From positions 128,282 through 192,281 of the forward strand of contig JAAOMT010000595.1 of NCBI GenBank assembly GCA_016748015.1: a stretch of 64,000 nt of DNA, written 5' to 3'. The stretch comes from Geosiphon pyriformis uo1. Taxonomy: Eukaryota > Fungi > Glomeromycota. Both the position numbers and the translations under genes were made by a program. This document shows positions 9,137 through 59,690 of the stretch, one piece after another. The stretch's first letter is position 1, and each line of letters opens with the position of its first letter. The notes below the pieces were generated by a model. It was given only the letters and a program-made list of their open reading frames with translations, was not told where the DNA came from and made no database searches.

Positions 9137-9139
9137 TAA

Positions 9140-17122: not shown

Positions 17123-17136
17123 TTATTTTCTTCTTT

Positions 17137-17772: not shown

Positions 17773-17827
17773 TTTTCTTGGTTGCTTTTGTCACATGTAC
17801 TGTGTCTTTATATATTCTTTTGGTTAT

Positions 17828-19210: not shown

Positions 19211-19242
19211 CTTTTGTTATATATTTTTGAATTGAAATGTTT

Positions 19243-22200
19243 TTAGATTTGTCTCATTCATGACAATCTGTCAGCATTTCCATTGTCTTTTCCCTTTTTA
19301 TAATGTACTGTATAATTGAATGGTAAAAGTTTTATTTTCCATCTGGCATGGCGATTGTCTACAAATTTTTGTTTCTGGATTGAAGTCAATCTCTTGTGAT
19401 CCATATATATTTCAAACTTTTGGCTCAAGTATTCTCTCCATTTCATGACTGCCCAATAGATTGCTAAATGTTCCAGTGCTGGTGTTCTATAGTTCTTTTT
19501 GGCTGGACTTAAGCTTCTACTGGTGTAAGCTACTGGATGTTCTCTTCCATCTGGTTCTTTCTGTAAAAGTACTGCTTCCAATGCTTGACCTGATGTATCT
19601 GTAGTAATGATGAATGGTTTGCTATGATCTGGATACATCAATACTGGAGCTTGAATAAGCTTTCTTCTCAGTGTGTTGAATGTTTTTTGTTGAGCTTCAG
19701 TCCATTCATACTTTACATTCTTGGTTTGTAGATAGTGAAGTGGCTGGGCTAGTTTAGAAAAGTCCTTGATAAAACATCAATAATAGTCTGTAAATCCCAA
19801 AAATGCTCTTAGTTCTGACAAGTTTGCTAGTACTGGAAAGTTCTTTACTATTGTAATCTTATCTGAATCTGTTTTGATTCCATTTTTGCTCACTACATGT
19901 TCCAAAAACTTGAGTTCAGTTTTTTCAAAGAAACATTTGGTCTTATTTAAATTCAGCTTTTTTTAATCTTTTGAATACTTGTTGGAGATGATGCAGATGA
20001 TCATCAAATGTTTTTGAGAACACATTGGTGTCATCCAAGTATATGACTACTGATTTCCACAATAAGCCAGTATAAACGATTTCCATTAGCCATTGGAAAG
20101 TGGCTGGGGTATTGGTTAAGCCAAATGACATCATTTTAAATTTGAAATTCCCTTCTTTAGTGGTGAATGCTGTTTTTTCTTTGTCAGCTGGATTCATGGC
20201 TACTTGCCAATAATCTCTGTTTAAGTCTAATGTTGAGAACCATTTGTTTTCACCAAAAGCGTCAAATAATTCCTGTATTCATGGAGTTAGATAGCTGTCT
20301 TCACGAGTTACACTGTTGAGTTTCTTGTAGTCCACACAAAATTGGATTTTCCCATTCTTTTTATGAACAAGTACTACTGGTAACGACCATGGGCTCATTG
20401 ATGATTGAATTAGCCCATTGTCAAGCATTCAGTTTATCTCTTGATGAATAATCTCGTGGCTGGCTGGTGGCACTCTGTATGCTCTTTGTTTGATTGGCAT
20501 TACATCTCCAGTCTTGATCTGATGCTGGATGATATCAGTTTAGCCAAACTTGTTTTCACTGGCAAAGATGTTTTTGAAATTGTTGAGCAACATCTTGAGC
20601 TGCATACGTTGGAGTGGATCTAAGTTTCTTATGTTCATTTGTTCCAATTGTTCTGGTTGGAGTAAATAACATTCGTCTTGTCTATAGATTGTTTGTGATG
20701 TAATGTTGACATATCCACAAAGTTGTGGAAAGTCTGGAATGGGGTTTGGTGGTTGGTCTTCTATTTCTGTGGTTAAATATCCAATGGTGGTTTTTTCTGG
20801 TATGTTGATGATATTGTCAGTATTGTTGTAGATGGAAATTTTTATGTGACTATAGCTTTTGGCTGGTATGTGGAGATTGATCAGTCCAATTTTTTCTGAT
20901 TCACAAAGGCTTGCTTCAGCTTCAAAAATCTGTTTTTGCTCCTTTTCTTTCCTTTCTATTGCTAACATGTACTGGCTATATGGTGGAATGGAAATAGCTT
21001 GGCCGGTTAAGATAATTTCTTCTTGGCCAATAATTTTTTCCTCTGCCATATTAACTGGTACATCTATTCTACTCGTTGACCCAAATCCCTGTATCCTTCT
21101 TGCTGTTATTCCTAACTCTTCTCTGTTTCTTACTGATACTAACTGAGCTATCTTAACCAAAGGTAAGAATATTGCCTGTGCTATTTTTTCATTCAGCTCT
21201 ATTATATAGGCCTTGTTTGAATTATTTTGTAGCATAGTAATGATATTTCCCACATATCCCACATCAATTATTCCTCCTCTTATATTGATCCCTCTTTTTG
21301 CTAAACTACTCCTAGATGCTAATTGAATCATTGTTGTTGCTGGAATTTCTAGTGCTATTTTCAAATCAATGCAGGTGCACTTATGTGGTTCCAATTTGAT
21401 GGTTTCTGTTCCTGGATATCTCAGATCAAATCCTGCATCAGTATTATGCATGCATTTTGGCATAATACTTTCATTATTATTGCTAAACCATTTCAGTTCT
21501 TGTTCCTTGGCGAGGTCAGGAAGCATGATATATTGTTCATAGTTTGAGTCAAAGTTTGAATCTGAGTTGATATCGTTGTTCTTGTCATTGCCATTTTGAA
21601 TGGAGCTGGAACCATTATTTTTGTCGTCATTGTTGTTGGGGTTTGAATCAGGATCGAGTGGTGATTCTGACTCTGATGCACAGCTGCTGATTGGTTTTTT
21701 TCTTCGGGGATCATGTAGATCATGCATGGTAGTGTATTGTAAATGAGGTCACAATCGTCATAATATTTAAAGTTACTGGGAATTAAACAATGACAACACA
21801 GTCTTGTATTCAACTATACTAGCCATTGTTCTTGCTTTTCTCTAGTGGGTGCCAAGTTCTGGTAGTGTTCATGGAACTCTTCTGGTTCCAGAAAATTTAT
21901 GACTAGCTCTGCATCCCAGTCAAGCTTGATGGGTTCTGGTAAGTTGTTTTTAATTTCTCTGATCTTTTCGGGTGTTGCTCTTTCTATTTTGCCGATTGCC
22001 ATTCTCCAAATTTTGTCATCATCATGTGGACAACTGTTCAGTTGCTGCATGGCTCTTCTCCAGACTGCTTCTATTGGTGTTCCTTTCTTTACCTAGTTGC
22101 TTATTAGAATCGTGTATTGACATGACATGTCACATGTTCCTCCACGTCTTGGGATGTTGTTCCACATCCCTTCATCTAGCAGGATCTCCCCACAAGCGAG

Positions 22201-24821
22201 ACAAGGTTGGTTATTCCATTTTTCTTGCCTCTTTGGTCATCCAAAGCATTCGAGTAAGCATAGACGACAGTAGAACTTTGTTGCAGTGTGGTATTTCTCA
22301 TCGTCACCACAGCATGCACTCATTGACGACAGTTTCTTGCCGCAATTGATGCATACAAGCCTTGGCCATCAATAATTGGATTGTTGTGGAGTGTGGTGGG
22401 TATAGGAATTATAAATGGTGGTGGTTGGTGGCATTCCTTCTTCCTTTTCTTTTCTTTTTCCCTTATCTTCATTCCATTTCCAACTGGAGGCTTCTTTTTG
22501 TTCATTGTCAGTCCAAGTCAGATTGTCGGTTTCCCAGATAAGTTCATTTGTTTGCTTTCCTTTCCCATTGTCGTTCCAAGAGAGTATTGGTGGCAGCTCA
22601 TTGTGCTCTTCATCAGCTCACGACATTTGGTAGGCTTCCCAGGTAGGTTTTGGTTTTTCTTCTTCAAAGTCGATTAGTGGTGCCATAGTGTTGGTAGCCT
22701 TAAAGTGGCCACATGTTGTTGGTACTCATGTGTGTTGCCCATTCTGGCTGAGTTGAAGCTCTTGTGTATTTCAGTCCAGAGTGGTGTTCATCTTGGACAG
22801 CCAGTCATTACCAACTAGAGCTTAGTATTAGGTGGCTTCCATAATGAGTACTTTGATTGGTACTATGATGCTGTTAATTTCGATTGGTAAGTCATCGATT
22901 TCGCTGATTGGAGTCTTGGTCACTCCATTAGCTGTGATGATTCTGGCACTAGCAGCTCGATCAACTCAGCAACCTAATTGATCCATAAGTTGTCATGTGA
23001 TAATGCTGCCTGCTGAACCACTGTTAAGAATTAGTTTGATGGGATGGCCATCAATTTTTACATCAGTGTACATGACAGTAATTGGCTTTTTTTCCAGTGT
23101 GATTTCACTAAATAATGATGTGCTTGACAGTTCCTCGAGTTCAAATGGAAAAATGGCATCTAGTAATTCATCATTGGTGACTGTTGCTGGCAAAATATTG
23201 CTGGTATGTGTTTGTTGTTTTTGGGTGGGTTCCTGGTTGCTGGATAAGGCATCTTCTGGGGTAACCAAGAGACTTAAATAGTTCTGGGAATTCGGGTTTT
23301 GGGGATTTCTGGTGCCCGAATTCCATTGACAAGATCCTGTTTGACTGAAGGAGCTGGAGATTGGCTGATGAACTACCATTGACAATCTCCAGTTTTGCTG
23401 CATGATTCTCGGTCTTTGGACTCCGCTGGCTGGTAAGTTTTGTGACGAGGTCTGAATTGTTTGGGATTGATAGATTGTTGGTGGTTGTGGTTGATATATT
23501 ACCTGTGGCTGTGGCTGATAAATTGGGGCTGTTGGTTGATAAATTGGAGCTTGATATACTGGTGGTTGATAAATTGATTGCTACGTTATTGGCAGATAAG
23601 TAGTTTGATATTGTGTTGAGTTTGATTGATGATTCGAAGTTGAGAACCAGTGATCAGGGTTTTGATATTGATTTCCCAATCATTGGTTATTTAAACGCTG
23701 GCGGCAGTTGATTTGAATATGTTCTTGTTTACCACAATAGTAGCAGATATGCATTTCCTGTTGCCATTGTTAATTGGTTGATGAAGATGGACATGGTTGA
23801 TATTGGCCATGAGTAGAGTTTCCTTGATTATTGCATTATTGTGGAGGCTAATAAATAGCATAATTGTCAACTAAGTATCCTTCTAATTTCTTATTAATTG
23901 ATTCACTGAACTTCTCCAATTTGGAATCCAATTCAGATGATCTGTTCATTACTAAATTAACAGCTTGGGCGTGGTTGGCCTCTAACTCAGCAGATTCAAA
24001 ATTTCTGGTGCATGTGACTGCATCTTGAAGTGTGCCTGGATGCAACGGACATACATGTTGCAGAATGCTGCTGCACAGGCCACAGATAAACTGGTTGAGG
24101 ATCTGTGGTGCTGTGAAGTAGTTGGCATCAATTGCTTGAATTTGGTGCAGATTTTGATGGAAGCATCCCAGGTAAGTGGTGACTGCTTCAGTTTCTCCTT
24201 GTTTCATGGTGGTAAACATGTTGACTAAGCAATTAATGCTGTTATTATTGCTGAAGTATCTTAGAAATTCCATTTTGAAGGCATCAAAATCTTGTGGTTT
24301 ATTAATTAAGCTCTGATATCATGAATTGGCAGTATCCTTGAGAAAGTAGGGAATAGCTTGCATTGCCCAAGCATCATTCTATTTGTTGGCTGTGATGGTC
24401 TTTTCTACATCATTCAGTCATACTTGAGTGTCATCCTCTTCACTAGTAAAGTTGTCAAGTTTTGCAATTGGTGCGTAGGCCATTGGATCTAAGTTGGGTG
24501 GTTGTGATGACTGTTGAAGTGGTTGTTGAAGAGGTAATGGTTGTTGGGGTGGTACTTGAGGTGGTTGAATTGGCTCACTAATCGGCTCAATTGGTGGTTG
24601 ATTGATAATAATAACTGAAGGTAGATTTTGTTAATGAATTAACTCAGGGTTTTGATTTTTTTGATTTGACAGGGTTCGAATATTCGGAGTTTCAATTTCC
24701 GAATTTTCTAAATGTTGCTGAGTTTGAATGTTCAGGTCTTTTAGGATTGGGTTTTGGTAATTAAATTCCTGATCCTTGCCTTTTTTTTCTTCTGATTCAG
24801 TAATTTCCCAGAGACTGATGA
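19243..24821 (-). pseudogene. Gypsy A/D gag-pro-Cys-rich-dUTPase-RT-RNaseH (continues at 45118-45743)
   Basis: MAYAPIAK capsid start (24483), CCHC knuckle, LILNSGS protease, dUTPase motifs AGFDL/RSSLA/GGIIDVGY/IAQ/GFGST (~21070-21495), YLDD, and TDTS..AYTSR RNase H. Confidence 0.92.
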
Positions 24822-34102: not shown

Positions 34103-34311
34103 AATGTTACAAATGATTATTTCTACTGTTGAATTAAATAACAAACCTGTAACTTGGTGTTCCAAAGCTACTTCCATGGATAAGATTCTACAAGTGTTAT
34201 ATCTGAAGGTTTGATGGAGTCTTTTGTATAATGAACAGAGATTCAATAGTGTTGATAGTAGATGTATCTTTCCAAGAGTTTTCCCAATTTCTTTCTCAGC
34301 ATGGTGGCTGG

Positions 34312-35375
34312 TATTACCTGAGTAAAAAAACCGATCCAAAGTTATAAAAAAATATGATCAAAACATAATATAACACAGAATAATACACAATAACATTGGA
34401 TAATGCATTATAATGTAGGATAACGTGTTATAATGCAGGATAACACAGAATAGTACGCAATAACATAGGATAATGTGTTATAACGCAGGATAACACAAAA
34501 TAACATGTAATAACATTAGATAACGTGTTATAACATAGGATAACTAGTGATAATGTAGAAAAATGAAGCAATAACAGAAACAACAAAGCAATAGTTAGTG
34601 ATAGTAAGACAATTGAAAGCAATCCTGTAAAACCAAAAGAATGTATAAAAGCAAGTAGTTGTAAAAGTGAGAAAAGACAGACAGATAGATATAAACCTTT
34701 AGACAAAAATTAAATATCCATACCCCTTTATCCTTTATTATCTTTCCTATTTCATCTCCTGAAATAAACCAATTATTAAAAAGAAATCAGAATCATGAAT
34801 TTATGTTCTCGAACTTCGTGAAATTTACGTGAATTAACCCTTGTCTCATACTTCCATTCTAGGACAGATGCTCTTAGCATAACCACCTCAAACTTATTAA
34901 CGATTTGGACCAATCACTCTTGATTACGGCAATTGACAATACTAATTTATCTTTTTTTTTTCTTTTTTTTTCTTTTTCTGTCTTATTTTTGTGAAGCAGC
35001 AACATAGTAAAATCGACTGTCTGAAAATAGACTTCATGATAGCCTGGTAAAAAAGGGAAGCTCCCCTTAAGTTTTGGATATTAACATTATCTTGTTAGCT
35101 TATCAGAAGGGCGAAAAGACAACACCAGACCCTAATGACTGCACTCATTAACTCAGAAAAGAAAGCTCACATTTACGAAAAATGTTACAATCGACGAAAG
35201 ACAAACTCTGTGCCTTATAACCAAAGAACTCAATGGGTAAATTCACATCCAGGAATAGACCTTCAAAGACTGATAATCAAGACTAAGCCAACAGAATTAC
35301 GCAGAAGATGCATCATCTATAATTGAGAGCACCAAACATTACCATTTCCCATACTCACCAAGTTTACCCATAACA
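34312..35375 (+). repeat. 5' LTR of element C
   Basis: Direct repeat of 43425-44478. Confidence 0.95.
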
Positions 35376-35437
35376 TTTGGTGCTTCCTGTGAGGTTATAA
35401 ATCCACAGAGACAGAGCACTTCCAAAAATACATAAAA

Positions 35438-38400
35438 GTGGCAACTATTGAAACAATAGGAAAGGACCACTCCTCGTACAGAAAAGCACTATTTTAATAC
35501 TTTTGAAAAAACCTAGGAATACCAGCAGAAATCACTTATGCAGAAAGTGATTTTTGTAACTATATCAACACAAAAATCAACTGCTTGTTAGGCTGCGCAA
35601 CTGATACAGGAAGACTTGGAGAACAAATCTATCAAAGCTTACTAGGGTACTCAACAGCCACAACTACCCGAGCAATTGCTGAAACTCTGTGTATAATCAA
35701 TACAGACATTAAATATTACATGGCACAATGATTTCCTCAAGTACAACAACCAGTAGAATCCGATCCTGAGAAATATAAAAACGAATCCAACAACTCTGTA
35801 ACTGCCCAAGCCAAGTCCACAGTCAACAAGAAACCAAGAGTCCTCTCCCCAACAACTCTATTATACTATCAGACACCCCAGAGTAGAATTGTATTCAACT
35901 CACCCCTGGAAACCCAGTCAGAAACACCACAAACTCCTAGAAATCCACACCCTTGGAATCAACACAGTTGGACCAAATCACTTGAAAAATATGGATTGCT
36001 GTTTAGAAATCTTACCCCAGCAGCTGGTCAAACAGAAGGAAACCCATCAACTTGAAAACAGTCACCAGCACAAAACCTAGCAAAATCAGCATCTCTTCTG
36101 ATAGAAGAAACAGCTATCTTACAACCAATTGGTTCAAGTGACAAAGGAAAGCAACCAGCATTAGCACCCAGAGAACACTCAAATATGCGGACACCAATCT
36201 CTTTAAACATAACCAGTAACACCCCACCCATTAACCAGATCATGGCTTACCAGGATATTGCTAAATTGGAAAAATTTTCTGGTGAAGAAAATAACACATA
36301 TTCTTGGATCATGGATGCCAAGAAAGCAATTACTGCTAATGGTTGGAACAATGACCACACAATTCAGGCACTGCTGTTCTTTCTATCCAGAACTGCCAAT
36401 TTATGGTAACAGAGCTTCGCAGAGAAGCCTACCTCCTTTACCGAGTTTAAACTTGCATTTCTGCAATACTTCTGTGACTCCAATACATTAATCTGATTGC
36501 AAAATCAATTCAGCATAATTAAACAAAAAGATCATGAAGCAATAACTACTTATTTCAGATGATTCAATCAAATTCTGTGTCAAATATTAGTTATTGAAAG
36601 AGACTACTACACTGTGGCGCAAGTTTTTAATCAATTCATTAAAGAATTGCAGAGTGGTATTCTAAGGTCCGTAAGACCCCACCATCTGACCAGTTTACAA
36701 GATGCCATCACTCTTGCTCACAATTTTGAGTCTGCAGAACAAGAAGCAAACCATACCCAAGCCATTAATTTAGCCATTAATGGAACCTCTGACATTGATG
36801 CAAAGATAACCCAATTGAGTGAGAAACTAACTTAGAAAATTGAGGGATTTTTAGCTGGAACTACAGGAACTTACCAACCACCCCAACGGAGAGAAAATAA
36901 TAACAACAGCAGATACTTACAGCAACAGAACTGTCAGCAACAGCAACAACCTTGGAGATCCAATCCTTGCAACTGTTACTACTGTCAGAAATCTGGACAC
37001 ATCACCCGTAACTGCAGAAGGAAGATTATGGACCAAAATCAAAGAAACCCATACCAGCAATCCAGATATTAGCAAAACATGGTACCCCAATATTCCATAC
37101 CTCAAAATCAACCGTTTCTATACACACAACAAGTCCCGTACACTCAACCACCACCCCAGAATTATTATCAACCACCACCAATAACACAAACAATCTCTCA
37201 CTATCAAACTTTCCCTTACAGCCCATCCAGACTTTGAGCTATAGACTATAATCAGGGATGAAAAAATCCCAACAACAATCAGGTACAAACCAATAGTGGA
37301 CTGTTTCGACCAATCCCTCACAGTCCTGCCCAATCTCGACCAACACCAACTGGATACCCAAATCAAGCTTCTTATCTCAGTCTTATGGAAGACCAAAGTT
37401 TTAATAAATCTACATCTGTGGAAGGAGAGGATATAGAATAAATCTCCCAACCTTCCAAGCAAACAAAAAGCAATATCCCACCAGCCATTATTACCAAAGA
37501 CACCATCCTAGCCACCATATTTCTTTTTGACATCAATAATTTAAACACCCATAGCCTTTTTAGTAGAACAGCCATCAATCAGGATAAACCAATAATGGCC
37601 CTATACACCGATGCCAGAGTCAGAGGAATAGACATTAAATTAATCCTGAATAGCAGATTAGCTGGTAGCATAATCACGAAGCAGCTCATGGACCAACTAG
37701 ATTGCTGAGTAGACTGTGCTGCTACCACCCGGATCATTACAGCGGATGGAAACACAAAAACCCCAATAAGAGAAATTGACAACTTCTCCTTCAAAATTAA
37801 TGGAATTCAAATCTCTACCAAAGTACTCATTATAAAAGCTATTCAATATCAAGCTTTAGTAGGAAACAATTGGTTGTCAAAAGCCAACGCTACTCTTGAC
37901 TGAAACACCCAAAAACTTCAATTCACGTTCCATGGACAGCATGTCCGAGTCCCAGCTACGTGCGGACACTTTAAAACCCAACGTACCAAGAAATCCCTTA
38001 TTGAATTCAAAGACACCAACCATCGAGACCTATTAGGTTTCATGGGCGGATAATTATCAAACTGAACTATCCCCACCATCAACCTGGGAAGAAAAAGGAA
38101 AAGACAGAGCTGAAGAAGAACCCCAATTGTCATTACTAGGATATGTAACCTCGGACCAAAGAAACTTATTTTACCAACCCCCAAGACTAATATGTGTTGA
38201 TTGTAGAAAAAAACTATCCACTATGAGCACATGTATTGGGGACAACAAAAAATGGCCCACCACCACCAAATACTATTGCAGACCTTGTTTACTGGAAAGA
38301 TTTGAATGACCAAAATGATGAGGCAAGTGAAACAACACACCATGTCTCACATGTGGTGAAATCCTGCCAGATAAAAGACTCTAGAATGATTTGCCTGGCA

Positions 38401-41216
38401 GAGGAGGAACATGCGACGAGGCTTGTCAATACACCATATTAATCAACGATTGGATACGAAAGGGAACTCCCATCGAAGACGCTTGGAAATGAGCCCTCAA
38501 CAGACTGGACGGTTATCCACATGATGACCACAAAATCTAGAGAATGGCAAGTGCCAAGGCCAAAGACACCATGCCCAAAGAAATATGAGAAATCAAGGAC
38601 AATCCTTGGACGTCCGAATATAATGGACCCGACTACCCTGAGGATGATTTCTTTACAGATGACTCAGACACATTTCAGAACCAATATCAGGAATTGGCCC
38701 CAACTTGCAAAGAACAGAAGCAAAGATTGGCCGATTTGAATACCAAACTGTGTGATCATTGTTTGATCCCTTATCACTTCCAGTACTGCGACGAATGTGA
38801 TCTCATGTTCAATCCACTTCCAAAAATACTGTTTCCAATTACTGAACTACCTGAGCCCGAAGAAGAGGTATTGATCACCGAGGACATGTTGTTTCAAGAT
38901 CCAACTGAGAATACTAAAACAGAACAGTATCTCGTGTATCCCGACCTATCCAAAGAACTAAAGCTAAAATAGTACAGTGATAACGAGAAAAGAATCTGCC
39001 CCAAAAGAGCACATGACACCAATGCTGGTTTTGATCTATGATATCTCGGACAATCATCCATCATTATAGCCCCACATTCTCTTGTAAAAATAGATCTTAA
39101 GATAGCATTAGAAATTTCTATTAGTACAATGATACAAGTTGCCTCTCGATCTAGTCTAGCCAAAAAAAGAATTGATGTAAAAGAAGGAATCATTGATGCC
39201 GATTACATGGAAAACATTATCATGATGTTACAGAACAATTCGAACAGACCCTACAAAATAGAATCACAAGAAAAAATTGCCCAAGCTATCTTCCTATTCC
39301 TAGTCAAAATACCCCAATTAACCCCAGTAACAACCTGAGAAGAGTTAGGCCTCACTGCCCAAAGAATTAACGGGTTTGGATCAAGTGAAAAAGGAAACGT
39401 ACCAGTTAATTTTATGAAGGAAGACAGTGACCAGGTAGAATTTATTAACACTGACACCGTCATCTCCATTCCCTCATACCAACAATACATCTTCAAGGTG
39501 AATTGAAAGATCCAAGATCAAGTCCTGTTATTCGAAGCCAGTCCTGAAATCTGTTCCCTAGCTGATGTTGCTAATCTATATCTACCGGCCAAAGCCCATA
39601 AACACTTCAAAATCCCCATCCACAACCTGACAGAAGATGTCATTGAAATCCCTGAAGGGACCCTCATTGGTTCTATATCCATAGATATTCAGAATCCTAA
39701 AAAACCCCAGTTCATTCCAGATTTCGCACAATTATTCTTATTCTGTGACATTACCTCACAAGTATAAAATTTGCTAAAAGAAAATTACTTGTTTACACCA
39801 AAAAAAATCAATAAATTGAATTTAGGAAATTTAAGTACCCTGCAACAAATGCAACTCAAAGTCCTTCTGAATCAGTATGCCGATGTCTTTGCCAGCGAAA
39901 ATGAGTTCAGATGCACTGACATTGTGAAGCATCAGATTGATACGAGAGATACTTGACCGATTAAGCAACAAGCTTACCATGTACCCCCATTTGGCTATAA
40001 CCTAATTAAGCAAGAAGTGCAACGGATGCTTGATAACAGCCTAATCAAAGAATCATTAAGCCCTTAGTTCTCTTCAGTAGTCTTGGTTACCAAGAAAAAC
40101 AGAAAAGTGTGATTCTGCATAGATTATCGAAAACTAAATAGTGTTATGTGAGGAAATAGTTATCTCACTCTCCTCATCCAGAAAATTCTAAACAATCTAG
40201 GGAAAAAGAAATGATTCTCGTCATTAGATTTAGCAAGTAGTTATTAACAAGTTGAAATAGACCCCAAAGACAAAGGAAAAACAGCATTTACCACTTGAGA
40301 TGGAAACTTCGAGTTTAACATAATGCCTTTTGGACTTTGTAATGCTCCTGCCATGTTTCAACATCTGATGGATGTAATATACAAAGAAATCCTTTGGAAA
40401 TCAGTAGTAGTCTACCTAGATGATACAAATGTGTTCTCCGAAACATTCGATGACCATCTGCTCCACCTACAACAAGTCTTCGAATGCCTTCGTAGTGCCG
40501 GATTGAAACTCAATCCCAAGAAGTGCTTCTTTGGAAAAACCAAGTTAAAATTCTTAGGACATGTAATCGGCAAGGACAGAGTTAAACCTGATCCAGATAA
40601 AGTACAAAAAGTCAAGAATTTTCCAGCTCCAATTAACCTCAGAGAATTACAAGAATTTCTAGAATTGGCAGAATATTATTGTTGATTTGTCAAAGATTTC
40701 TCGAACATCACAAAACTACTCCATTAATTGTTGTCCAAATACATATCGTACTTGTGGAAAAAAGATTAACAGAAAGCATTCGACTATCTCAAGCAGTGAT
40801 TAATCACATCCCCAATTCTAATTTACCCAGATTTTACTAAATGGTTCATTGTTACTACGGACGCCTCAAAAAATGCTCTAGGAGCAGTCTTATTACAGAT
40901 AGGACCGAACAATAGAGAACACCCAGTTGCCTACACTAGTCGCAGCACCAGCCCAGCAGAAAAAAATTACAGCACAACAGATCTGAAATGTCTCATCATT
41001 TATTGGGCCATACAAACTTGGAAACATTATCTTAGTTAACCATTTGACCTATATACCAATCATAAAGGACTTATTTGATTACTCAACAATCCACAACTAG
41101 AAGGAAAATATGCGAGATGGAGTACTTATCTGCAATAATTCCCATTCAAAGTCCATTACAAGGAAGAATCCAAGAACACCAATGCCAACAGTTTGTTGAA
41201 AATGCCACAAACCTAA
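35438..41216 (+). pseudogene. Gypsy C gag-pro-Cys-rich-dUTPase-RT-RNaseH
   Basis: GTG 35438 is in frame with capsid MAYQDIAK (36242). CYYCQKSGHITRNC, IKLILNS, AGFDL/RSSLA/IIDADY/IAQAI/GFGSS, MPFGLCNAPA, YLDD, TDAS. Confidence 0.92.
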
Positions 41217-41226
41217 TCCCAGACTC

Positions 41227-42594
41227 ATGAACACACTTACTTATCAACAACTATATCAGTACCTATCAACACTACGTTTCAAGGAGATATTATCTCAACA
41301 GGAACAAAGTACCATACAAAAACAAGCCCAAAATTATTTTATTCAAGACAACCAACTATATTGACGAGAACACCAAAACCACCCCAACCCACAACAACTA
41401 ATTAAGGACAGTGAAAGAGAAACTATACTATATAGCATGCACTCAGATCCGACTGCAGAACACTTTAACAAAGATGCTACCCTTGAAAGAACACTAAACT
41501 TATACTATTGGCCAACGATGTACAAAGACATTTTTGAATATGTGCTCAATTGTGACACATGCCAGCGAAGAGGAGGAACAAGATCAACAGAACCACTTCA
41601 ACTCATTCTAGTTGGAAATCCATTTGATAGAATTGGGATCGACTTGGTTGGACCTCTTTCAATTACATCCCAAAGAAATTGCTATATCACTGTAGCTGTA
41701 GACTATCTTACAAAATGGCCAGAAGCCAGAGCAATCTAAGTGGCTGATGCCAAAACAGTAGCCGAATTTGTGCATCAAGACTTAATTTGCCAACATGGAT
41801 GTCTGAAAGAATTATTATCTGATCAAGGAACACACTTCGTTAATAATACGTTGACTAAACTAAGTCCACGGTTTGGAATAAAGAGACTCTTATCGTCACT
41901 ATACCACCCACAAACAAACGGACTGGTAGAACAATTTAATAGAACACTGTGTAAAGCACTAACAAAAATAAGTCATGAAAACAAACAAGAATGAGACTTA
42001 TTCATATCTTCTGTACTCTTTGTATACCGAACATTGAAACAAAATATGACTCAGTTCACACTGTTCGAACTAGTCTATGGAAGAAAAGCTACGTTACCAA
42101 TTGAACAAGTGATACTGTCATACTCAACAGAAACAATCAATGAAGAGAATTTTGAAGCTACCTTACACCAAAAAACGTACCAGCTAATAAAAATGTTGAA
42201 AAACAATTGAAGAACAGCAGCTGACAATATTAGTCATGCTTAAGAATGACAAAAAGAAAAACATGATAAACACCTATCAGAACAACCAATGGAATTCAAG
42301 ATTGGAGACCAAGTACTGTTATATTGTACAAAAGCTGAGAAACAGTGGAGTGGAAAGTTTGACCCAAAGTGGAACGGTCTATTCTATATACATGAAGCAT
42401 TAGAAAATAGAGCTTACAAATTATGATTGGAAGACAGGATTTTAAAGAAAGTAGTGCATAGAAATCAGTTAAAAATTTATCATGAAAAACAGGAATCATT
42501 GTCATTAGTACCTCAACTAGAAACACAAATTTCATTAATTAGACCAGAAAATATACCACGAGATCTAAAACCAATTATCGTCATCAAAACATAG
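41227..42594 (+). pseudogene. Gypsy C integrase (stand-alone ORF2)
   Basis: MNTLTYQQL start, MHSDPTAEHF..CDTCQ, FDRIGIDLVGP, SDQGTHF, HPQTNGLVE. Confidence 0.9.
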
Positions 42595-42674
42595 ACAATG
42601 GGCAGCAAATTAAATTGGGGAATTCAAATATATATAACATCCAAAAAGCAGCAAGAAACGATAGAAATTTCAAC

Positions 42675-43409
42675 ATGGACCTTTCAGATCAAATTTTAAA
42701 ATTATCTAAACAATTATTTGAAACAATTCAAAAATTGACATCTCAAATAAAAATAACAATTGATAAAAAAGAGATATAGTACAAAGATAAGAGCAGGAGA
42801 GGAAAGAACAAGAGTTCAATTAGAACTAAATCCTCCCTCCCCTACCTACCACCCGAAAGGCAATGTTGGAGAAAAAATTGCCTTCAGGTGGGAGGTGGAA
42901 AAGAAGGAGGCAAAGAATGAGAAAAAAGTTACAAAAGAAGATACTTGGTCCTTGAACTTGAAGAAATAAAAAAAGCTTTAGCTTGTGGGACCAAACTTCC
43001 CGAAACAGGGGAGTGAACACCTGACAACACTCAGGAATGAAAAGAAAGACTTCTCTCAGCTTATTGGTTCTACAAAATTGGAGAACAGCTTGACTTAAAA
43101 ACACCATATGAAGACCTCAGCCAGAAAATGTTTAACAAAGAAGCAATACAACAAGTAGAAAAATTCATAGGGAAAAACAACCTGACCCTACATTACAAAG
43201 CAGCATACTGACTATACATTATCTTCCAACATTGCCCAAATGTGCTACTGAATGGATCTATGAAAACCATAATGGTTAACAACATAGAATGAATAACCAA
43301 TCAACAATTCAAAGACCTACAAAAAGCAATACTCAAGGCAACAATCAAACATTACATAAACAAAGCCACAATAACAGATACATACAGTTTCGCAGGAGCT
43401 CAATTTTAA
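42675..43409 (+). pseudogene. Gypsy C ORF3 (~244 aa, ends SFAGAQF*)
   Basis: MDLSDQILKLSKQLF..QIKITID..GKNNLTLHYKAAY.LYIIF. 735 nt in one frame. Confidence 0.75.
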
Positions 43410-43424
43410 AAAAGAGAGGGATAA

Positions 43425-44478
43425 TGTTACCCAAGTAGAAAAACCGATCCAAAGTTATGAAAAAACATGACCAAAATGTGACATAACACAGAATAATGCA
43501 CAATAACATTGAATAATGCATTATAACATAGGATAACATGTTATAATGCAGGATAACACAGAATAGCACGCAATAATATAGGATAATGTGTTATAATGCA
43601 GGATAATACAGAATAACATGTAATAACATCAGATAATGTATTATAACATAGGATAACTAGCGATAATGTAGAAAAACAAAGTAATAACAGAAACAACAAA
43701 GCAATAGCTAATGATAGCAAGACAATTGAAAACAATCCTGTAAAACCAAAAAAATGTATAAAAGCAAGTAGTTGTAGAAGTAAGAAAAGACAGACAGATA
43801 GATACAAACCTCTAGACAAGAATTAAATATCCATACCTCTTCATCCTTTATTATCTTCCCTATTTCATCTCCTGAAATAAACCAATTATTAAAAAGAAAT
43901 CAGAATCACAAATTTATGTTTTCGAACTTTGTGGAATTTACATGAATTAACCTTTGTCTCGTATTTCCGTTCTAGGACAGATGCTCTTAGCATAACCACC
44001 TCAAACCTATTAACAATTTGGACCAATCACTCTTGATCATGGCAATTGACAATACTAATTTTTCTTTTTTTTTTCTTTTTCTGTCTTATTTTTGTGGAGT
44101 GGCAACATAGTAAAATTGACTGTCTAGGAATAGACTTTGTGATAGCTTGATAAAAGAGGGAAGTTTTCCCTAAGTTTTGGATATTAACATTATCTTGTTA
44201 GCTTACCAGAAGGGTGAAAAGACAATCCCAGACTCTAACAACTGCGCTCGTTAGCTTGGAAAAGAAAGCTCATATTTACAAAAAATGTTGCAATTGACGA
44301 AAGACAAACTCTGTGCCTTATAACCAAAAAACTTAATGGATAAATTTACATCCAGGAATAGATTTTCAGAGACTGATAATCAAGACTAAGCCAACAGAAT
44401 TACACAAAAGACACATCATCCATAATTGAGAGCACCAAACATTACTATTTCCCATACCCACTAAGTTTACTCATAACA
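43425..44478 (+). repeat. 3' LTR of element C
   Basis: TGTTAC...ATAACA, preceded by the PPT. Confidence 0.95.
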
Positions 44479-45117
44479 CCGGATTTAGTCTGGCAGTTGT
44501 GTCCTTCTGGTAAGCTATCCGATAATATATAAAATCCTACTCTTATTTCTGGATCTTTTACCAGGCTATCCTTGACGTCAATAACTCAGTGCTTAATCTT
44601 TTAATCAATTAGTATACAACAACAAAATAAAAAAGAAAGAAAATAAAATAAAGAAAATAGAGAAAATAAGCCAAGGTAATTTAGTACGTTAGTATCTTGT
44701 CAATAGCCATAATCAAGAGTTATCAACATGAAATGTTGATAGTAGAGAGTGGGTTGAGATATGAAATAATTATTTATTTAATGATTGGGAACTGGAATAT
44801 TGCTTAGATTAAATCTAAACGGAGAGGTCTATCTTTTTAGCTTCTAATTCTACTGCTATATATACATAATTGAGATTTCTCAATTCCTCAATTCTTTGTG
44901 ACAGAAATCCTGGGATTCTTGAAATCCTGCAATTTCTGATGAGAGGAATCCTGGAATTCTGGAATCCTGCAATTCCTTATCAAGGAATTCTGAAATTCCT
45001 GGAATCTTGCAATTCCTCTGAAAGGAATTCTGGAATTCCACATTTACTACATCTACTTCTGATTGGCTAATATCTACTGACTAATAATACTATATTTCTT
45101 ATATTCTATAAGTAACA

Positions 45118-45743
45118 ATGGCTCCAAAATCTGGCTGATGAGGCAGTGATTGGAATCCTGATGGTGTTGGTGATCTCGATTTAAATCCTTCAAAATAATT
45201 GCTGTATGCTCTTAATAGTTTGTTTTTTTTTTGTTTACTCTGAAACATGATTCTTGCTAGTGGCGTCTTTGTACTGGTAGACACGTCTGCTGATGTGATG
45301 TTAATGGTACTTCTGGGCATGTAATGATATAATGGGTATATCGGAGATTCAATTCTTTGTTTCTTCCAGTTAGGAATTTGTATTCTTTTGGGTGTTACTG
45401 CTGGTGTCTGTAGTTTTTCTTTGCCTTTGTTCTGGTAAGTAATAGGGAATGTTCTTTGTGTATATTTTTCAATTTCTTGGTTGATTTCTCTGATGATGGG
45501 TGCAAAGCTGTGATTTGTGGATAAGTTGGTGTGTTGGATTAGTTCCAAATAGAAATTTTCTCTTGCTGATTTAATATCAACTGGTCTTCTTAGGAAATCT
45601 GTGATTCTTTTATTGATGTAGAAGTTGAAAGCTAATTCTGCTAAGTAATGGTTGTTGTTTAGGCCTAGCTGTTGGCTGTACTGTTGAAATAAAGATTTTG
45701 TGAATCCTAGATAGTTTGTTCCTATTATTTCTGATTCTGCCAT
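45118..45743 (-). pseudogene. N-terminal gag extension of element A/D
   Basis: Homologous to B 33467-34042. In frame with the capsid Met at 24483 once B is removed (960 nt). Confidence 0.88.
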
Positions 45744-45805
45744 TTTTGGTTTGGTGTTGTCAGTGCTGGTTCTCTGTAGGATTATACTTCACAGGGAGCA
45801 CCAAA

Positions 45806-46675
45806 TGTTATAGTTGAATTATTTGGAGTCTCAAGTCAAATAACAAACCTGTAACTTGGTGCTCAAAAGCTATTTCTGTCAATGATATTCTGAAAGTGTT
45901 ATATCTGAAGATTTTGATGGAGTCCTTTGTATAATAAACAGAGATTTGATAGTATGGCAATTTGTTGTTTGTTGTTAGTTGTTTTCCAATTTCTTTCTCA
46001 GTTTGGTGGCCAGATTTATTCTGGCAGTTGTGCCCTTCTGGTAAGCTAACTGATAATATATATAAATCTACCCTTATTTTTGGGTCTTTTACCAGACTAT
46101 CTGTGATGTTAATAACTCAGTACTTTTAATCCCCAATCAATTAGTAGGCACAACAGAATCAAAGAAAGAAAGAAATAAAATAAAAATAATAATGATGATG
46201 AAGATAAGCCAAGACAATTTGGTAAGTTAGTATCTCGTCAATAGCAATGATCAAGAGCTATTGTTTTAGCGTGGTTAAGTATCAATTACTATCAACATGA
46301 AGTGTTGATAGTGGAGAATAGATTGAGATATAAAATAATTATTTATTTGATAATTGGAAGTTGGAAGATTGCTTAGATTAATCTACACTAAAAGGTCTGT
46401 CTTTTCAGCTTCTAATTCTGCTGCTATATATACATAATTGAGATTCCTCAATTCCTTGATTCTTCACAACAAGAATCCTGGAATTCCTGAAATCCTGTGA
46501 TTCCTTTGAGAAAAATTCTGGAATTCTGGAATCCTGTGATTTCTCGTCAGGGAATCCTGAAATTCTTGGAATCCTGCAATTCCTGAAAGGAATCCTGGAA
46601 TTTTACATTTATTATGCCTACTTCTAATTGGCTACTACTCATGCTAATATATTTCTTATATTTCTATAAGTAACA
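45806..46675 (-). repeat. 5' LTR, family D (B-like U3), with no partner LTR in the window
   Basis: TGTTAT...GTAACA, adjacent to a PBS. Carries a GGAAT(T/C)C array, unlike LTR-A. Confidence 0.88.
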
Positions 46676-47210
46676 ATAACAAAAAAAAATAAAATAAAAT
46701 AAAATAAAATAAAAAAATAAATAAAAGCAATTACAAGTTAGTATTCCATCAATAGCTGTAATCAAGAGTTATTGTTCCAGTGTGATTAAGTATTAATTAT
46801 TATCAACATAAATTGTTGATAGTGGAGAGTGGATTTGGATGGTGAATGATTTATTTATTTAATATTTGTGAATGGAAGATTTCTAACTCTCAGATTCTGC
46901 TCTTTCTATTTCTAATGATATTGCTATATATACATAATTAATGTTTTATGAGATTGTTCACATTCTCGAGCGATGTGCTATAATTTCTTAAGCAATGCTC
47001 ACATTGCTGAGCAATGTGCCCTAATTTTCTAATATTGCTTCATATTGCTGAGCAATGTGCCATGTTTTCTGATATTGCTCCACATTGCTGAGCAATGTGC
47101 TGTGTTTTCTGACATTGCTCCATATTGCTGAGCAATGTGCTTATGTGCTACATACTATTTACTTATTGGTCTACTATTTCCCTATATCTGTTTTCTTTCT
47201 ATGAATAATA
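46676..47210 (-). repeat. Truncated 5' LTR of family A (U3/R side only)
   Basis: Matches 16629-17122, including the 40-bp palindromic array; followed by TSD TCAG. Confidence 0.88.
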
Positions 47211-50809: not shown

Positions 50810-51793
50810 TGTTATCGGAGGTTTTTGGTCTCTTTTCTTAATTGTTGTTGATGCCTGTTTGCTGTGAATTCACGTTTTCTGAATGTGGTTGAACCTCCAG
50901 TAACTGAATTTATCTTCAAATTATCTTCTATAATTTGAACTGCTGGGCTTATAAGTGGAATGGCCAATTTCTTGCCAGTTACTTTATGTAGTTACATTGT
51001 AGTAAACGTTAACTCTTTCCCAAGAATTGCTCGTCCAAAAGCTCACTAAAAATGTGTAGTTACTTTGCTGTGAAAGTCAACTCTTCTATAAGAATCTCGT
51101 CTGTAGGCTACCCTAATGATTGTAATCAGAAAATAAAAAAAGTATAAAAAAAATGTAAAAGAAATAGAATTCTGTCGAGGGAAATGTTTTCTATCCAGGC
51201 CTGGAGTCACTAACAGTTTACTGAAATTGGTAGCTAATCAATTTCAAAATGTTAGTTGGGTTTTTGGGGATTTTCCAAGTACAATAATTAAAGAATTTGG
51301 TTTTTTGAATTATTTGATATTTATTTCTTTTTGTGTGTATAGGAACGGTTTTAAGAGATAAATCTAAAGTAAGATATATTTTCTTGAAAAGAGAAGCTCT
51401 TCTTTTATACAACTTGTCATAACACTATTCTATGTACTTGAACTTTGCTATTTTCTATAATTTCACTGAACTAAAGATACATTTCGGCGAACTACAAGTT
51501 ATTTCTGCGAACAATTAGATATTTTGGCAAATTATCAATTATTTCGGCAAATTTCTTACAAATTTTGGCAAACTTTTTGAATGTTACATAGTTCGGGGTA
51601 TTGCATAATTGATCATCACAATTAGGTTACATTTGTGTTATGTACAAATTGGGTTATTAATTAAATGATAATTTTGGATATATTTTGCTAATGTAATAAG
51701 TAATAATTTGAAATGATAATATATGCTAATTAATGATAAGATTTATAAGGGTAATTTCATGCTAAACAATATCTCTAATTTCATCTGGTAACA
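50810..51793 (-). repeat. 3' LTR of element E
   Basis: Direct repeat of 59691-60653. Confidence 0.95.
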
Positions 51794-51804
51794 TAACCTC
51801 CTCC

Positions 51805-52481
51805 TTAAGACTGAGCTCCATCGAAGTCCAAGTACTGTCTGTAATTTCCAGATAATAATCCAAAATTATTGAAGAAATTTGGTCTGAAAATTGTTGAAAT
51901 TTCAGTTCTGTGAGCTTTCTGATGTATTGAATCTTCAAAGGTTGTAAAATTGGGTTTTGTAGGACGTTTTCACAGGTGTAGAATAGGTCATAAAGTCTAA
52001 GAGCAGCTCTTAGTTTATAGTGACTGTTTGTAGGTTCAGCTGTTGTTTTGAATTCATTGTGGAGTTGTTTTTGAATAGCTTTTTTTGTGAGGTTTGCTGC
52101 TGTAAGCTCTCATTTTCATTCGTGAAGTGTTTTTCCAATGTAGAAATATCTATATATTGGAGTATAGTTATGGTTTTCTTCATTAAGACACAGTTGAAGT
52201 TTTTGTTAAATAGTAGCATTTGGTGGAATACTAATAGGAGTGAACATTAAATTTTCTCTTAAAGCAAACTTTAAAAGTTCTGGCAGGTGAATTCCAGAAT
52301 AACTTCTTGTGTTCTTCTTATATGGGTAATATTTTCGTGAATTTGGGGCTAAATTTGTGACTACTTCTGTTTGGATATAATTAATGTGGTTTCCAGTAAC
52401 AGTAATAGATAATTCGGGTATTGTTTTTAAAGCTAACATTAGTTTTTGGGATAATTGTTGAATGTTTTGAGAAATAGTCAT
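51805..52481 (-). pseudogene. Gypsy E ORF3 (frameshifted, ends DFDGAQS*)
   Basis: MTISQNIQQLSQKLM..LSITVTGNHINY; C-terminal RAALRLYDLF..IRKLTELKFQQF. Confidence 0.7.
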
Positions 52482-52598
52482 TATAAAAGATTTGAAAATA
52501 AAAGAAAATTATTTTTGGTATATGAGTTTTTATGTTATTTTTGTTTTTGTGAGATTGTTTCTAAATTATAATAATATAGCTATAATGATAAATTTAAA

Positions 52599-53982
52599 TT
52601 AAGTATTCAAGTTGGGAGGTTGTTCAATAACAACTATTGGTTCTAAATTCCAGGGAATATCTTTGGGATTGATTAAAGGAGAATGTGTGCCAATTTGTAG
52701 AATTAATGGTTCAGAGTTGTTTCTGGAATTATAGTGTTTCAAATAATCTCCATGTGCAACTTTTACTAGGATTTTGTTATCAAGTCTTAGCTTGTATGAT
52801 CTGTTGTCTAGAATTTCATGGATAAAGAATGGTCTATCCCATTTATTTTCAAATTTTCCACTCCATTGTTTTTCAGCTTTACTTCTGTGTAAGAGAACTT
52901 TATTTCCAACTTTAAATTTGTTAATAATAGGTGGTAATTTGTTGTCATGTTTTTCTTTTTGTTGAGCTTAAAAATGTTCAATATGAGTTGCTGCTATTTG
53001 TCGTTTTCCTTCCAATGTGCTAAGCAGAGTGTAGGCTCTTTATTGTAGTGTTTCCTGGAAATTGTTTTTATTGATTGGTTGTGCTGGGTATGTTTCCACT
53101 ATAAAACTAATTGGTAATGTTGCTGTCCTTCCATAAGTTAAATCAAATGGTGTGTTTTGTGGTATCTTGTTTTAGCATTCTATATGCTAGTAACACTAAT
53201 AGAATAAAAATATTCCACTCTTGTTCAAAATCAGTTGAGACTTTGGCTAAAGACTCACACAATGTTTTGTTAAAACATTCCACAAGTCTGTTTGTTTGTG
53301 GATGATAGGGCAAAAACAGAAGCCTTTTGACATTGAATTGTTCACAAATTTTTTGTATCAGGTTGTTCACAAAGTGTGTTCTTTGATCAGATAAAAGTTC
53401 TATTGGGCATTTATGTCTACAAATGATGTCTTTGTAGATGAAATTTGTTACTGATTTTGCATCTGCTTGTTGAATGGCTCTGGCTTCAGGCCATTTGGTG
53501 AGATAGTCTACAGCTACTGCAATATAACAGTTTCCTTGGTTTGTGATAGGAAGTGGTCTGACTAAATTGATACCAACTCAGTCAAAAGGCTGTCCAATTT
53601 TGATTGGGTTTAATGGTTCAGTAAGGCATGTTCCTCCTCTTTTTTTGACAACTATCACAAGATTTGACATATTCGTGAATGTTTTTCTCATTTGAGGCCA
53701 AAAGTAATATTCTAGTGTTCTTTGGGTGGTGCTGTCTTTTCTGAAGTGTGCTGATGAAGGATCTGAGTACATGTTGTATAATATAGTCTCTTTTTTTTGT
53801 TCTTGTATTAATCTGAGTGGTTTGTCTGGGTTTTTGAAATTTTGATAATAAATAATGTTGTTGTGTAGAAAATATTGTTTGGCTTGTTGTTGTAGTCGAT
53901 GTTTTTCATCTGGAGACCAATCTGTTGGGATTGTTAATGTTTCCAAATATTGCTTGAGATTTTTGTAGTTTTTTGAATTCAT
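52599..53982 (-). pseudogene. Gypsy E integrase (stand-alone ORF2)
   Basis: MNSKNYKNLKQYL start, SAHF, GQPFD.VGI, DYLTKWPEA, YHPQTN. Confidence 0.9.
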
Positions 53983-54033
53983 TGTTTGTTGGCTGTTTTG
54001 GTTGATTAAGTTGAGTGTTGGTTTTTGTGTTTT

Positions 54034-57000
54034 CTAATCTTGTCTTATTCTGGAGAGACAGTCAACATTGGTGTGGAGTTTTTCTGGTTTGTAATGTACT
54101 ATGTATTGATAGTTTGCTAGAAATCCTGTTCATCAGGTTTGTTTTGCGTTTAGCTAAGTATTTTTGTTCTGAAGCCATTTGAGTCCAATATTATCAGTGA
54201 TAATATCGAATTCCTTTGGCTGAAGATAAAGGTTAAAATAATGTAGGGCCCAAATTACAGCTGCTGTTTCCAATTCAGTGGCAGGATAATTTTTTTCAGC
54301 TGGTTTTAATGTTCTGCTAGCATAGGCAATTACTTGCTCGTTTTTATTGTCATCCAATTGTGATAGGATAGCACCAAAGGCAGTATAAGAGGCATCTGTT
54401 GCTAATCAGAATTGGTTGCCAAAATCTGGGTAGACGAGAATTGAAGCTGTGGTTAGTTTTTCTTTGAGGATTTCAAATGCATTTTGGTGTTCAGCAGTCC
54501 ATTTGTATTCGACGTTTTTGGTGGTAAGCTGGTTGAGAGGTTTTGCAATTTCTGAGAATTCTTTAATAAACTTCTGATAATAGGAGACTAACCCTATAAA
54601 TCCTCTTAGTTCTGTAGTGTTTCGAAGAATTTTGAAGTTTTTGACAGCACTGATTTTTCCAGGGTCCAGTTTGATTCCATTTTTACTAACAATATGACCA
54701 AGAAAGGCCAAGTTTGTTTTTTCAAAGTAGCATTTTTCAATGTTGAGTTTTAGTCCTGCTTTTCATAATCATTGAAAAACTTCTCACAGGTGTTTTAAGT
54801 ATAATTCGAATAATGGAGAATAAACATCAGTATTATTAAGATAAATAACTACTGACTTCCAAAGGAGTCCTTGGTACACAACATCCATTAATCTCTGAAA
54901 CATTGCTGGTGCATTGCATAATCTGAAAGACATTACATTGAACTTGTAATTTCCACCTTGGGTAGTGAATGCTGTTTTGGGGTGATCTTTGGGATCCATA
55001 GCAACTTGCCAGTAACCACTTTCTAAATCTAGTGTTGAAAAGTATTTGGATTTTCCAAGGGCATCTAACATGTTATTAATTCGGGGAAGGGAGTAGGTAT
55101 CTCCAATTGTAATGCTGTTGAGTTGTTGATAGTCAACACAAAATTGTATTTTTCCATTTTTCTTTTTAACTAGCACTACAGGTAAAGCTCAAGGACTTAT
55201 GGAGAGTTGAATAAACCTGTTGTTAAGCATTTGTTGTACTTCTTCTTGGATGAATTGGTGGCTTTCTGGAGCAACTTGGTAGGCTTGTTGTTGCTTTGGT
55301 TTGGCATCTTCTGTGTAGATTTAATGTTGAACCAAATTGGTTTTTCCTAAGTCATTGTTGTTTTTGGCAAAAATATCAGTAAATTCTACAATTAGCTCTT
55401 TGAGCTGGTTTTGTTGTTGTGGTTCAAGTTGTCCCATGTTAATTCGAGATAGTTTTTCTATGACAACATGATAGTTTTCAGAGCTGGGGTTTGGGTTGAT
55501 TTTTGGTAGTAAATGTCCAATAATTTCAGAGAAATCAGGGACTGTTTGGGGTAATTTTTGTTGAAATATATTACTGTGAATAACTCCAATTTCTAAATTA
55601 TTTAACAAAACTATGGGGTAATTGTTGGGATTGTAAAAAGTAACTTGGACTTTTTTTGTTCCTTCTGGAATATAAATGTTTGGGATTGAAATATTATGTT
55701 CCAAGCAGACTTGTTCATTGGACTCAAAAATTTGTTGTGTGGTTGTTGGCTTTGGGCAGGTGTAGATTTCCAGATGTTCTCCAAAGGGTAAGATAGTAAT
55801 TGATTGTGGAAGTCTGAAAATCTGGTGGAATTTGTTCTGTGTATTAAGAGCTATATTAACTAGAACTGTAAACCGTCCAGTTGAACCAAAACCTTGAATT
55901 CCTTTTTCACTTTTTCCTAATTGTTCTCTTTGATTGACTAGTTGCAAACCCGAAATGTTGATTAGGGGTAGGTAAATAGCTTGGGCAATTTTTTCAGCAT
56001 GTTTGATCTTGAATGGTTTGTCAGTTTCATTTTAAAGCATCACTATAATGTTTCCAGTATATTCAGCATCAATTATTCTTCCTCTGACATTGATTTCTTT
56101 GCTTGCCAGAGAAGACTGAAAGGCAATTTGAACTATTGCTCCTGGTGGGATTTTGAGTGCAATTTTGAGGTTGATTTTTATGAGAAATTTGGGTTTGAGA
56201 ACAAGAGTATCTTTGTCTGAATATCTTAGGTCATATCCAGCATCAATTTTGTGTGCTTTTTTGGGTTTTATTTCTTGTCCATTGTTGTTGAAGTATTTGA
56301 GTTGTAAGGCAGGCTGATTTTCAATGAGATAGATGGGTGTTGTTTTAATTTCTTCTGTTGCTTCAGGTTCTCCAAATTTAATTCATCACTTTTGCTGGAT
56401 AATAGAATGCTAAGGGCATAGCATTTAGGACATCATTGTTCATCACATGGCATTATACACTCCTCACATAATTTAATGTTCATTTGCTCTAATTATTGAA
56501 TTTAAGCTTCTTGGATTAGGTAGATGTGACTTACAATTTGGTGGTATACTTCAACTTCATCTTTATAATTGAATCCAGCTAATTCCAATGTATATTCAAT
56601 ATATTCGGCTTCCTTTATTTGAAAGACATCTTCTTTGGTTCCTCTATTAATTAAGACCATGGCAAGTTTATAGATCATTTCAGCATTATAGGAGTAGTAA
56701 TAGAGTTTGCTAAGGGCACTGTTGTATGTGGCATTGAAAGGTGTTCCATGTTTTACTTTTTCTGCAATAGAAAGAGCATATTGGCAAGTTTGATCACAGA
56801 TTCCTCCTCTAAATGCGACATCAATCCAGTCACATTCATCAGGAAGCTGCTTTCCACAAGTAAGACAAGGTGTTCTATCCCATTTTCCACTTCTTTTGAT
56901 CAAGTGGCCTTATTGTTCTTGATGGCAGGCCTTGCAGTAGTAGCAGATATGACTTTCATATTCTTCCTTAGGTGAAATACAAGCTCCCATTGACAATAGT

Positions 57001-59645: not shown

Positions 59646-59690
59646 TTTAAATTTGTTGTTGCTGTGTTATTTCCATGAGAGAGCACCAAA

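Follow-up and report, generated by a model that had tools for sequence, protein, structure and literature searches.

Can an integrase be encoded apart from the Gag-Pol polyprotein in a long terminal repeat (LTR) retrotransposon? The question is raised by a stretch of 64,000 nucleotides from the fungus Geosiphon pyriformis uo1 (contig JAAOMT010000595.1, positions 128,282 to 192,281; here called the window, whose own positions are used below). It holds several decayed Ty3/Gypsy elements. In the clearest of them, element C, and in its relatives A, B and E, a stop codon follows RNase H, and then come an integrase with its own start and a third open reading frame (ORF3). In described elements the Pol polyprotein ends with the integrase (PMC3248453, PMC10224137, PMC5408684; here and below, papers are cited for the portions of their text available). 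We are confident that the order Gag-Pol, integrase, ORF3 is genuine and that the stop behind RNase H is not a product of decay.

The Pol stop and the separate integrase frame

Self-comparison and the flanks define C as a complete LTR element (34312-44478, forward strand) with a 4-bp target site duplication (TSD), primer-binding site (PBS) and polypurine tract (PPT). Its parts are as follows.

34308-34311 (left) and 44479-44482 (right): 4-bp TSD, one transition between the two
34312-35375, +: 5' LTR, the starting TG decayed to TA, the end TAACA
35378-35395, +: PBS after a 2-nt spacer, its first 8 nt common to B, C, D and E
35438-36241, +: Gag N-terminal extension, start GTG (ATG in D)
36242-38020, +: capsid, CCHC knuckle and protease (PR); Met at 36242, CCHC at about 36974-37015, PR at about 37610-37870
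38175-38810, +: Cys-rich domain, 33-70% identity to A among the four copies
38997-39386, +: dUTPase (PF00692, E 9e-17)
39405-39710, +: spacer domain after the dUTPase, conserved among copies
39843-41216, +: reverse transcriptase (RT) and RNase H (RH), terminating at TAA 41214-41216
41227-42594, +: integrase, 455 codons, own ATG 10 nt past the Pol stop in the +1 frame; HHCC, DDE and an SH3-like tail
42675-43409, +: ORF3, frameshifted in C
43410-43424, +: PPT, preceded by a conserved motif containing GGAGC
43425-44478, +: 3' LTR, pairing with the 5' LTR at 90.1%

The Pol frame terminates right behind RNase H in all four copies (C TAA 41214, A TAA 19245, B TAA 27838, E TAG 54036). The integrase starts 10, 32, 62 and 51 nt further on in C, A, B and E, in frames +1, +2, +2 and 0, respectively; in A the start codon reads ATA, probably a decayed ATG. 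The integrase terminates in its turn, and a homologous ORF3 comes next in every copy. This layout up to the PPT, which an earlier sequence-only reading of the window had proposed, was recovered in 4/4 copies by Pfam searches and by mapping of stops and frames. An ATG overlapping the end of RNase H in A and B was rejected as a start, as it was likely created by a CGA-to-TGA change.

In other respects these are ordinary Ty3/Gypsy elements. They share with the Metaviridae direct LTRs of the TG..CA type, PBS, PPT, a short TSD, an RVT_1-type RT, a Ty3-type capsid, an HHCC/DDE integrase and the order capsid-CCHC-PR-RT-RH-integrase. Pfam, run on frames read through stops as X, confirmed capsid and PR, then dUTPase, RT and RNase H, then the H2C2 and rve domains of the integrase; the CCHC knuckle is visible in 4/4 copies and gave a Pfam match in E. 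In A, B and E one frame runs from Gag into Pol across both the Gag-PR and the PR-Cys junction. The window copies differ from the usual Metaviridae, with integrase inside the Pol polyprotein, in that the integrase is a separate ORF with ORF3 behind it.

Could the split be a decay artefact of an ordinary Gag-Pol-integrase frame? None of the four copies holds an intact ORF. C alone has 48 premature stops (14 in Gag-PR, 27 in Pol and 7 in the integrase stretch) and frameshifts in ORF3 and near 38030, the latter private to C, since the frame continues there in A, B and E. Decayed family copies show 1117 transitions and 38 transversions, the transitions in every sequence context with CpG most affected in C and E, and a TAA is derivable from CAA. 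However, the frame of the integrase varies among the copies, and the stop is common to the family. In run X1, whose contigs may derive from the window's own source yet sample other family copies, 13 positions between 41125 and 41250 vary at 5% or more across 435 contigs, none of them in the stop of C or in the integrase ATG, which lies near the edge of that stretch. The premature stop at 41136 is missing from 46,854 of 47,457 depth units (99%; best 40 of 1155 rows).

We examined metagenome loci for fusion because a protein search with the integrase is unable to reveal it. Among the best 80 of 519 confirmed loci, chosen by integrase motifs, 52 have an RNase H match upstream of the integrase and could be counted; the 28 others were left uncounted. 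RNase H and integrase are separate in 52/52. The integrase falls in the three frames in 15, 21 and 16 loci, with spacers of -20 to +506 nt (median, 79.5), and is free of stops in 57 of the 73 loci holding both of its ends. The sequence-only reading had named one continuous gag-pol-integrase frame lacking a conserved ORF3 as the outcome that would undo it; the relatives show a uniform split and a conserved ORF3. Largely intact relatives that are split in 52/52 cases, together with the family-wide stop in 435 contigs, refute decay as the origin of the split, and we give that explanation practically no credence. One caution weighs on all these counts: the loci are mutually related, so that they are not independent and the tests overstate their independence.

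With the integrase of C as query, 1297 proteins of 250-797 amino acids (aa) were found among 5297 candidates. The top 120 carry integrase domains only; 117 start with Met, in 97 cases at most 2 residues from the start of the profile. No chromodomain match was found on the integrase of C or B or in the precomputed domains of these 120 homologs (it occurs in distant matches), and Pfam found no Ulp1 domain on the window integrases. Seven of the 120 proteins have Rhizophagus irregularis or R. clarus as their named source, pointing to Glomeromycotina, and reported LTR expansions in Archaeosporales (PMC11952901) fit such a host. No relative was found in IMG/VR and phage collections. The lineage likely belongs to arbuscular-mycorrhizal (AM) and other soil fungi.

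Translation of the free-standing integrase

As all three frames occur and the spacers vary in length, readthrough or frameshifting is excluded as the rule. To judge from sequence, the most likely route is a subgenomic RNA scanned from a nearby 5' end, a model that we hold with about even confidence. The full-length RNA would yield a single in-frame Gag-PR-(accessory)-RT-RH polyprotein, while integrase and ORF3 would each be translated from a separate AUG on a shorter RNA whose leader measures less than about 100 nt. For the integrase, this RNA may arise by an internal start or by splicing, its 5' end lying nearby. The integrase would not be carried in on Gag-Pol; it would have to reach the particle or the completed cDNA through binding, much as a transposase does, with ORF3 as a candidate adaptor.

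The integrase ATG sits in a Kozak-like context: a purine stands at -3 in 68/77 loci and G at +4 in 65/77. In the last 80 nt of the 40 distinct positive spacers there are 6 ATGs where 31.0 are expected (0/300 dinucleotide shuffles give so few). Farther than 80 nt from the ATG, the 12 spacers longer than 120 nt show no depletion (42 ATGs against 35.3 expected), and 10 of the 12 hold ATGs able to intercept scanning from the Pol stop. As the depletion is limited to the last 80 nt, scanning seems, at least where spacers are long, to begin within about 80-100 nt of the integrase ATG and not at the Pol stop. Two points speak against the subgenomic model. The 40 nt before the integrase ATG hold no excess of the splice-acceptor triplet YAG (43/67 against 45 expected), and the 11/52 loci with overlapping stop and start and the 10-nt spacer of C suit a stop-restart.

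Such a restart, in which ribosomes would terminate after Gag-Pol on the full-length RNA and reinitiate at the next AUG for integrase and for ORF3, is a possibility that we take seriously without favoring it. Besides the 11 loci with overlapping or abutting stop and start, 29 further loci have spacers of at most 120 nt that are nearly free of ATGs (3 against 21.7 expected in 28 distinct spacers), and the spacers in the window are 10-62 nt long, A-rich and unstructured. It is the 12/52 longer spacers, with their undepleted ATGs, that fit poorly, and efficient reinitiation downstream of a long ORF normally needs a dedicated signal, which also counts against it. Sub-lineages may differ in route. 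Internal ribosome entry through an RNA structure just 5' of the integrase AUG is unlikely in our view. A covarying two-helix hairpin does stand there in 23/80 loci (L010:5733-5795, L023:572-632 and 21 more), with compensatory changes in 9/11 pairs, a level that 0/500 shuffles reach. However, it is missing from the window and from 57/80 loci, and it could equally serve processing or packaging; Rfam gave no match for the hairpin and none in the window or 20 loci.

Phylogeny and the resemblance to Ginger1

The trees were built with database proteins that bear no clade names, and fused proteins were added through an unrestricted profile search; a broader Pol search was dominated by distant animal and plant Gypsy elements, which served as outgroup only. 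The RT-RH tree placed 27 split rows, made up of 22 of the 36 eligible loci, three stretches of the window and 2 proteins terminating after RNase H, in one group with 3 fused proteins (support 91/92), away from 24 other fused proteins, with P0366 in between. Because fused relatives surround the group, we treat the split integrase as a derived Ty3/Gypsy variant, and the trees fit a single fission of integrase from Pol. This picture is weakened by the support for the split rows alone, which is only 58/48, and by four close relatives in which the integrase is fused (P0301, P0312, P0325 and P0366). A first FastTree had given a purely split clade (0.983), whose support fell once the four nearest fused proteins were included.

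A quick integrase tree of 65 rows joined the split integrases, other stand-alone integrases, four fused integrases and a branch of four proteins in one group with an SH-aLRT of 99, inside which the order is not settled. Three of the proteins on that branch have a C-terminal Ulp1 domain, and two Ulp1-bearing integrase proteins have the same Met start position as the split integrases. The DNA transposon Ginger1 is defined by its Ulp1 tail, a YPYY segment at the N terminus and TSDs of 4 bp with the sequence CCGG (PMC2836005). According to the available text of that paper, no Gypsy lineage clusters with Ginger1, and the route from an LTR element to a DNA transposon is unclear. The window elements resemble Ginger1, as described there, in a stand-alone Gypsy-like integrase with a YPYY-type N-terminal segment, TGTNR ends and a 4-bp TSD. 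The TSDs are CCGG or CCGT in Ginger1 (PMC2836005) and CCGG-, CCAT-, CCAC- and CTGA-like in the window copies. Unlike Ginger1, the window elements possess LTRs together with Gag and RT, and they lack terminal inverted repeats and Ulp1. The comparison is limited in that the tree held no named Ginger1 sequence and that fused Gypsy integrases share the same group.

Judged by the N-terminal integrase motif, the probable neighborhood of these elements is among the Gypsy groups with a YPYY integrase, including Gypsy-1-I_RO and DGLT-A (PMC2836005); DGLT-A has a single ORF (PMC5911963). In the portions available, integrase lies inside Pol, or the point is left unaddressed, in PMC5911963, PMC2774666, PMC2864245, PMC6431247, PMC6839031, PMC13468544 and bioRxiv 2021.03.30.436303. 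We found no description of a separate integrase ORF in the literature; Repbase, GyDB, subscription papers and supplements may hold one. Only tentatively do we propose the broadest reading, that of an undescribed large clade of fungal Ty3/Gypsy elements in which integration is uncoupled from the Gag-Pol particle. A free, transposase-like integrase made from its own RNA would bind the cDNA, helped by an ORF3 of new fold, and the free integrase gene would be the missing step to Ginger1 and to host genes of the Gin-1 type.

Local modules, ORF3 and the nested copies

The full combination of domains had been put forward as a lineage of its own. The three-ORF layout stands; the rest of the combination does not, as the dUTPase and Cys-rich domain are matched in 0/80 related loci, 17 of which show PR and RT before the integrase, and ORF3 is missing from 14 of the 39 loci with enough downstream DNA (at least 700 nt). 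The sequences indicate that the clade trait is the split integrase, usually with ORF3, and that the remaining modules are local. The dUTPase and Cys-rich domain in particular appear to be local additions and not lineage traits, exchangeable modules that the host's families may have acquired. The dUTPase was matched in all four copies (Pfam, E 9.5e-21 to 4.7e-15) and in one other cluster (P0172), whose protein terminates after RNase H. Its position between PR and RT is indeed known in fungal Gypsy elements, having been described in Postia PosPlaTy3-5, Phanerochaete and Tuber Tmt1 (PMC2864245) and also in planarian Burro (PMC6431247); the bdelloid Juno, Vesta and TelKA bear a dUTPase in this position together with an ORF3 (PMC5408684). 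In contrast to the window copies, these elements keep integrase within Pol, and their ORF3s are env, GDSL, DEDDy or transmembrane proteins (PMC2864245, PMC5408684, PMC6431247), whereas that of the window copies is helical. The Cys-rich domain has no Pfam family and no sequence match in PDB, and its model showed no confident fold (pLDDT 40.5). A second dUTPase-like repeat, as the spacer domain had been called, is not supported: hhalign gave a probability of 0.06% to the dUTPase profile, the alignments being shallow, and there was no Pfam match.

B, C and E open the Gag extension with GTG, and D opens it with ATG. Because decay runs from G to A, GTG is the likelier original, and a GUG start is plausible from the sequences. 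No Pfam family was found for the counterparts in D or E. Seven related loci (L002, L012, L013, L014, L020, L024 and L066) carry a distinct Gag N-terminal domain with an ATG start and a conserved His/Cys pattern. Other modules were seen elsewhere in the clade. In L064 (2357-3013) a thymidylate-kinase-like P-loop domain is fused behind RNase H (PF02223, E 4e-5, under the curated cut-off), a second nucleotide-metabolism module of the clade. Behind RNase H, L010 (4940-5719), L018, L029, L041, L050 and L078 have an acidic extension of 250-400 aa that holds a conserved His/Cys-rich motif, belongs to no Pfam family and co-occurs with the hairpin sub-lineage. In a further sub-lineage (L013:2498-2503, L017, L024, L025 and others), 11 of the 12 PR-RT junctions listed contain an in-frame TGA-CTA, and the elements are mostly without ORF3; TGA followed by CTA is a recognized readthrough context.

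An ORF of at least 100 aa follows the integrase in 25 of the 39 loci, one apparently spurious and one encoding an unrelated helix-turn-helix protein in the ORF3 position (L020:6522-6941). The ORF3 proteins of B, C and E match that of L003 (E 1e-8 to 6e-15), and the window profile matches the main ORF3 family with a probability of 90.3% (E 1.5e-6). A model of 148 aa is all-helical, with eight helices and a pLDDT of 90.5. Foldseek found no match for it at E of 0.001 or less in PDB or BFVD; the best VIA Z was 5.2, and several MIT-type helical bundles at 4.3-5.2 lie below the noise level of the tool. The top Atlas match was a Mucoromycota cluster (0.94), with a weak recognition score. An envelope glycoprotein was considered and rejected, as there was no credible Pfam match, env included, and the model is all-helical; transmembrane prediction was not part of this comparison. 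What remains of the suggested likeness to complex retroviruses is an analogy, ORF3 having neither a Pfam family nor an env match. Just 5' of the PPT, a purine-loop motif is conserved at 43388-43409, at the equivalent positions of A, B and E and in many loci, within or outside ORF3; a hairpin at this motif reaches a z of -3.45 in L078 and falls short of significance in the decayed copies of the window.

C (forward) lies within the 5' LTR of B (45117-24822, reverse), and B within Gag of A/D (46675-16309, reverse); E (60653-50810, reverse) is separate from this nest.

24822-45117, -: element B, interrupted by C; Pol stop 27838, integrase ATG 27773, integrase stop 26393, ORF3 ATG 26337; 4-bp TSD
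16309-24821, -: element A, the 3' part of A/D; Pol stop 19245, integrase start about 19210, integrase stop 17830, ORF3 ATG 17772; 3' LTR of a second type
45118-47210, -: D, a B-type 5' LTR (46675-45805) and the start of Gag, inside a partial LTR (47210-46676) of the 3' type of A
50810-60653, -: element E; Pol stop 54036, integrase ATG 53982 (same frame), integrase stop 52601, ORF3 ATG 52481; exact 4-bp TSD; LTRs 95.2% identical

All copies have LTR ends of 5' TGTTA (TA by decay in two) and 3' at or near TAACA, and TSDs of 4 bp. The shared PBS may be primed by tRNA-Ile. The LTR pair of C differs by 102 transitions and 2 transversions; those of B and E are 92.2% and 95.2% identical, with almost all differences transitions. 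A/D carries two LTR types (75.3% identical, 103 transversions), and its 3' LTR matches the partial LTR at 47210-46676 at 89.1%; A/D is therefore a chimera. Self-comparison gives 78% identity between A and B across 7.1 kb, and A/D is chimeric, so that there are about three lineages rather than the four divergent elements first counted. The integrase of C is 56% identical to those of A and B and 46-52% to that of E. A search of run X1 with 35376-43425 gave 26,867 contigs with a summed depth of 17,000-77,000, compared to about 70-100 per long contig. This suggests hundreds of copies of the C family, a rough estimate and no true copy number.

Elsewhere in the window, an intact ORF of 725 aa with pentatricopeptide repeats (6977-9154, reverse) is a host gene. 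The insertion target of A is a decayed sequence resembling a non-LTR retroelement (about 10000-16300, reverse, read by eye), and a second, related piece lies at the window end (63255-63995). Pieces of LTR and Gag from further related families occur at 60931-62818 and 1288-2130, with about 70% identity to the types found in C and B.

In these elements the integrase is probably produced as a separate protein and not by cleavage of a long polyprotein. Described LTR elements and retroviruses deliver integrase to the particle within Pol, and a lineage that encodes it separately needs another route of expression and of delivery. Cultivable Rhizophagus with intact copies would make both directly testable. 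A free integrase gene also offers a concrete route for the origin of Ginger1 from a Gypsy integrase, a question left open in the available text of PMC2836005. For the annotation of AM-fungal genomes, many genes listed as stand-alone integrases, and many ORF3 genes listed as hypothetical, are probably pieces of these elements.

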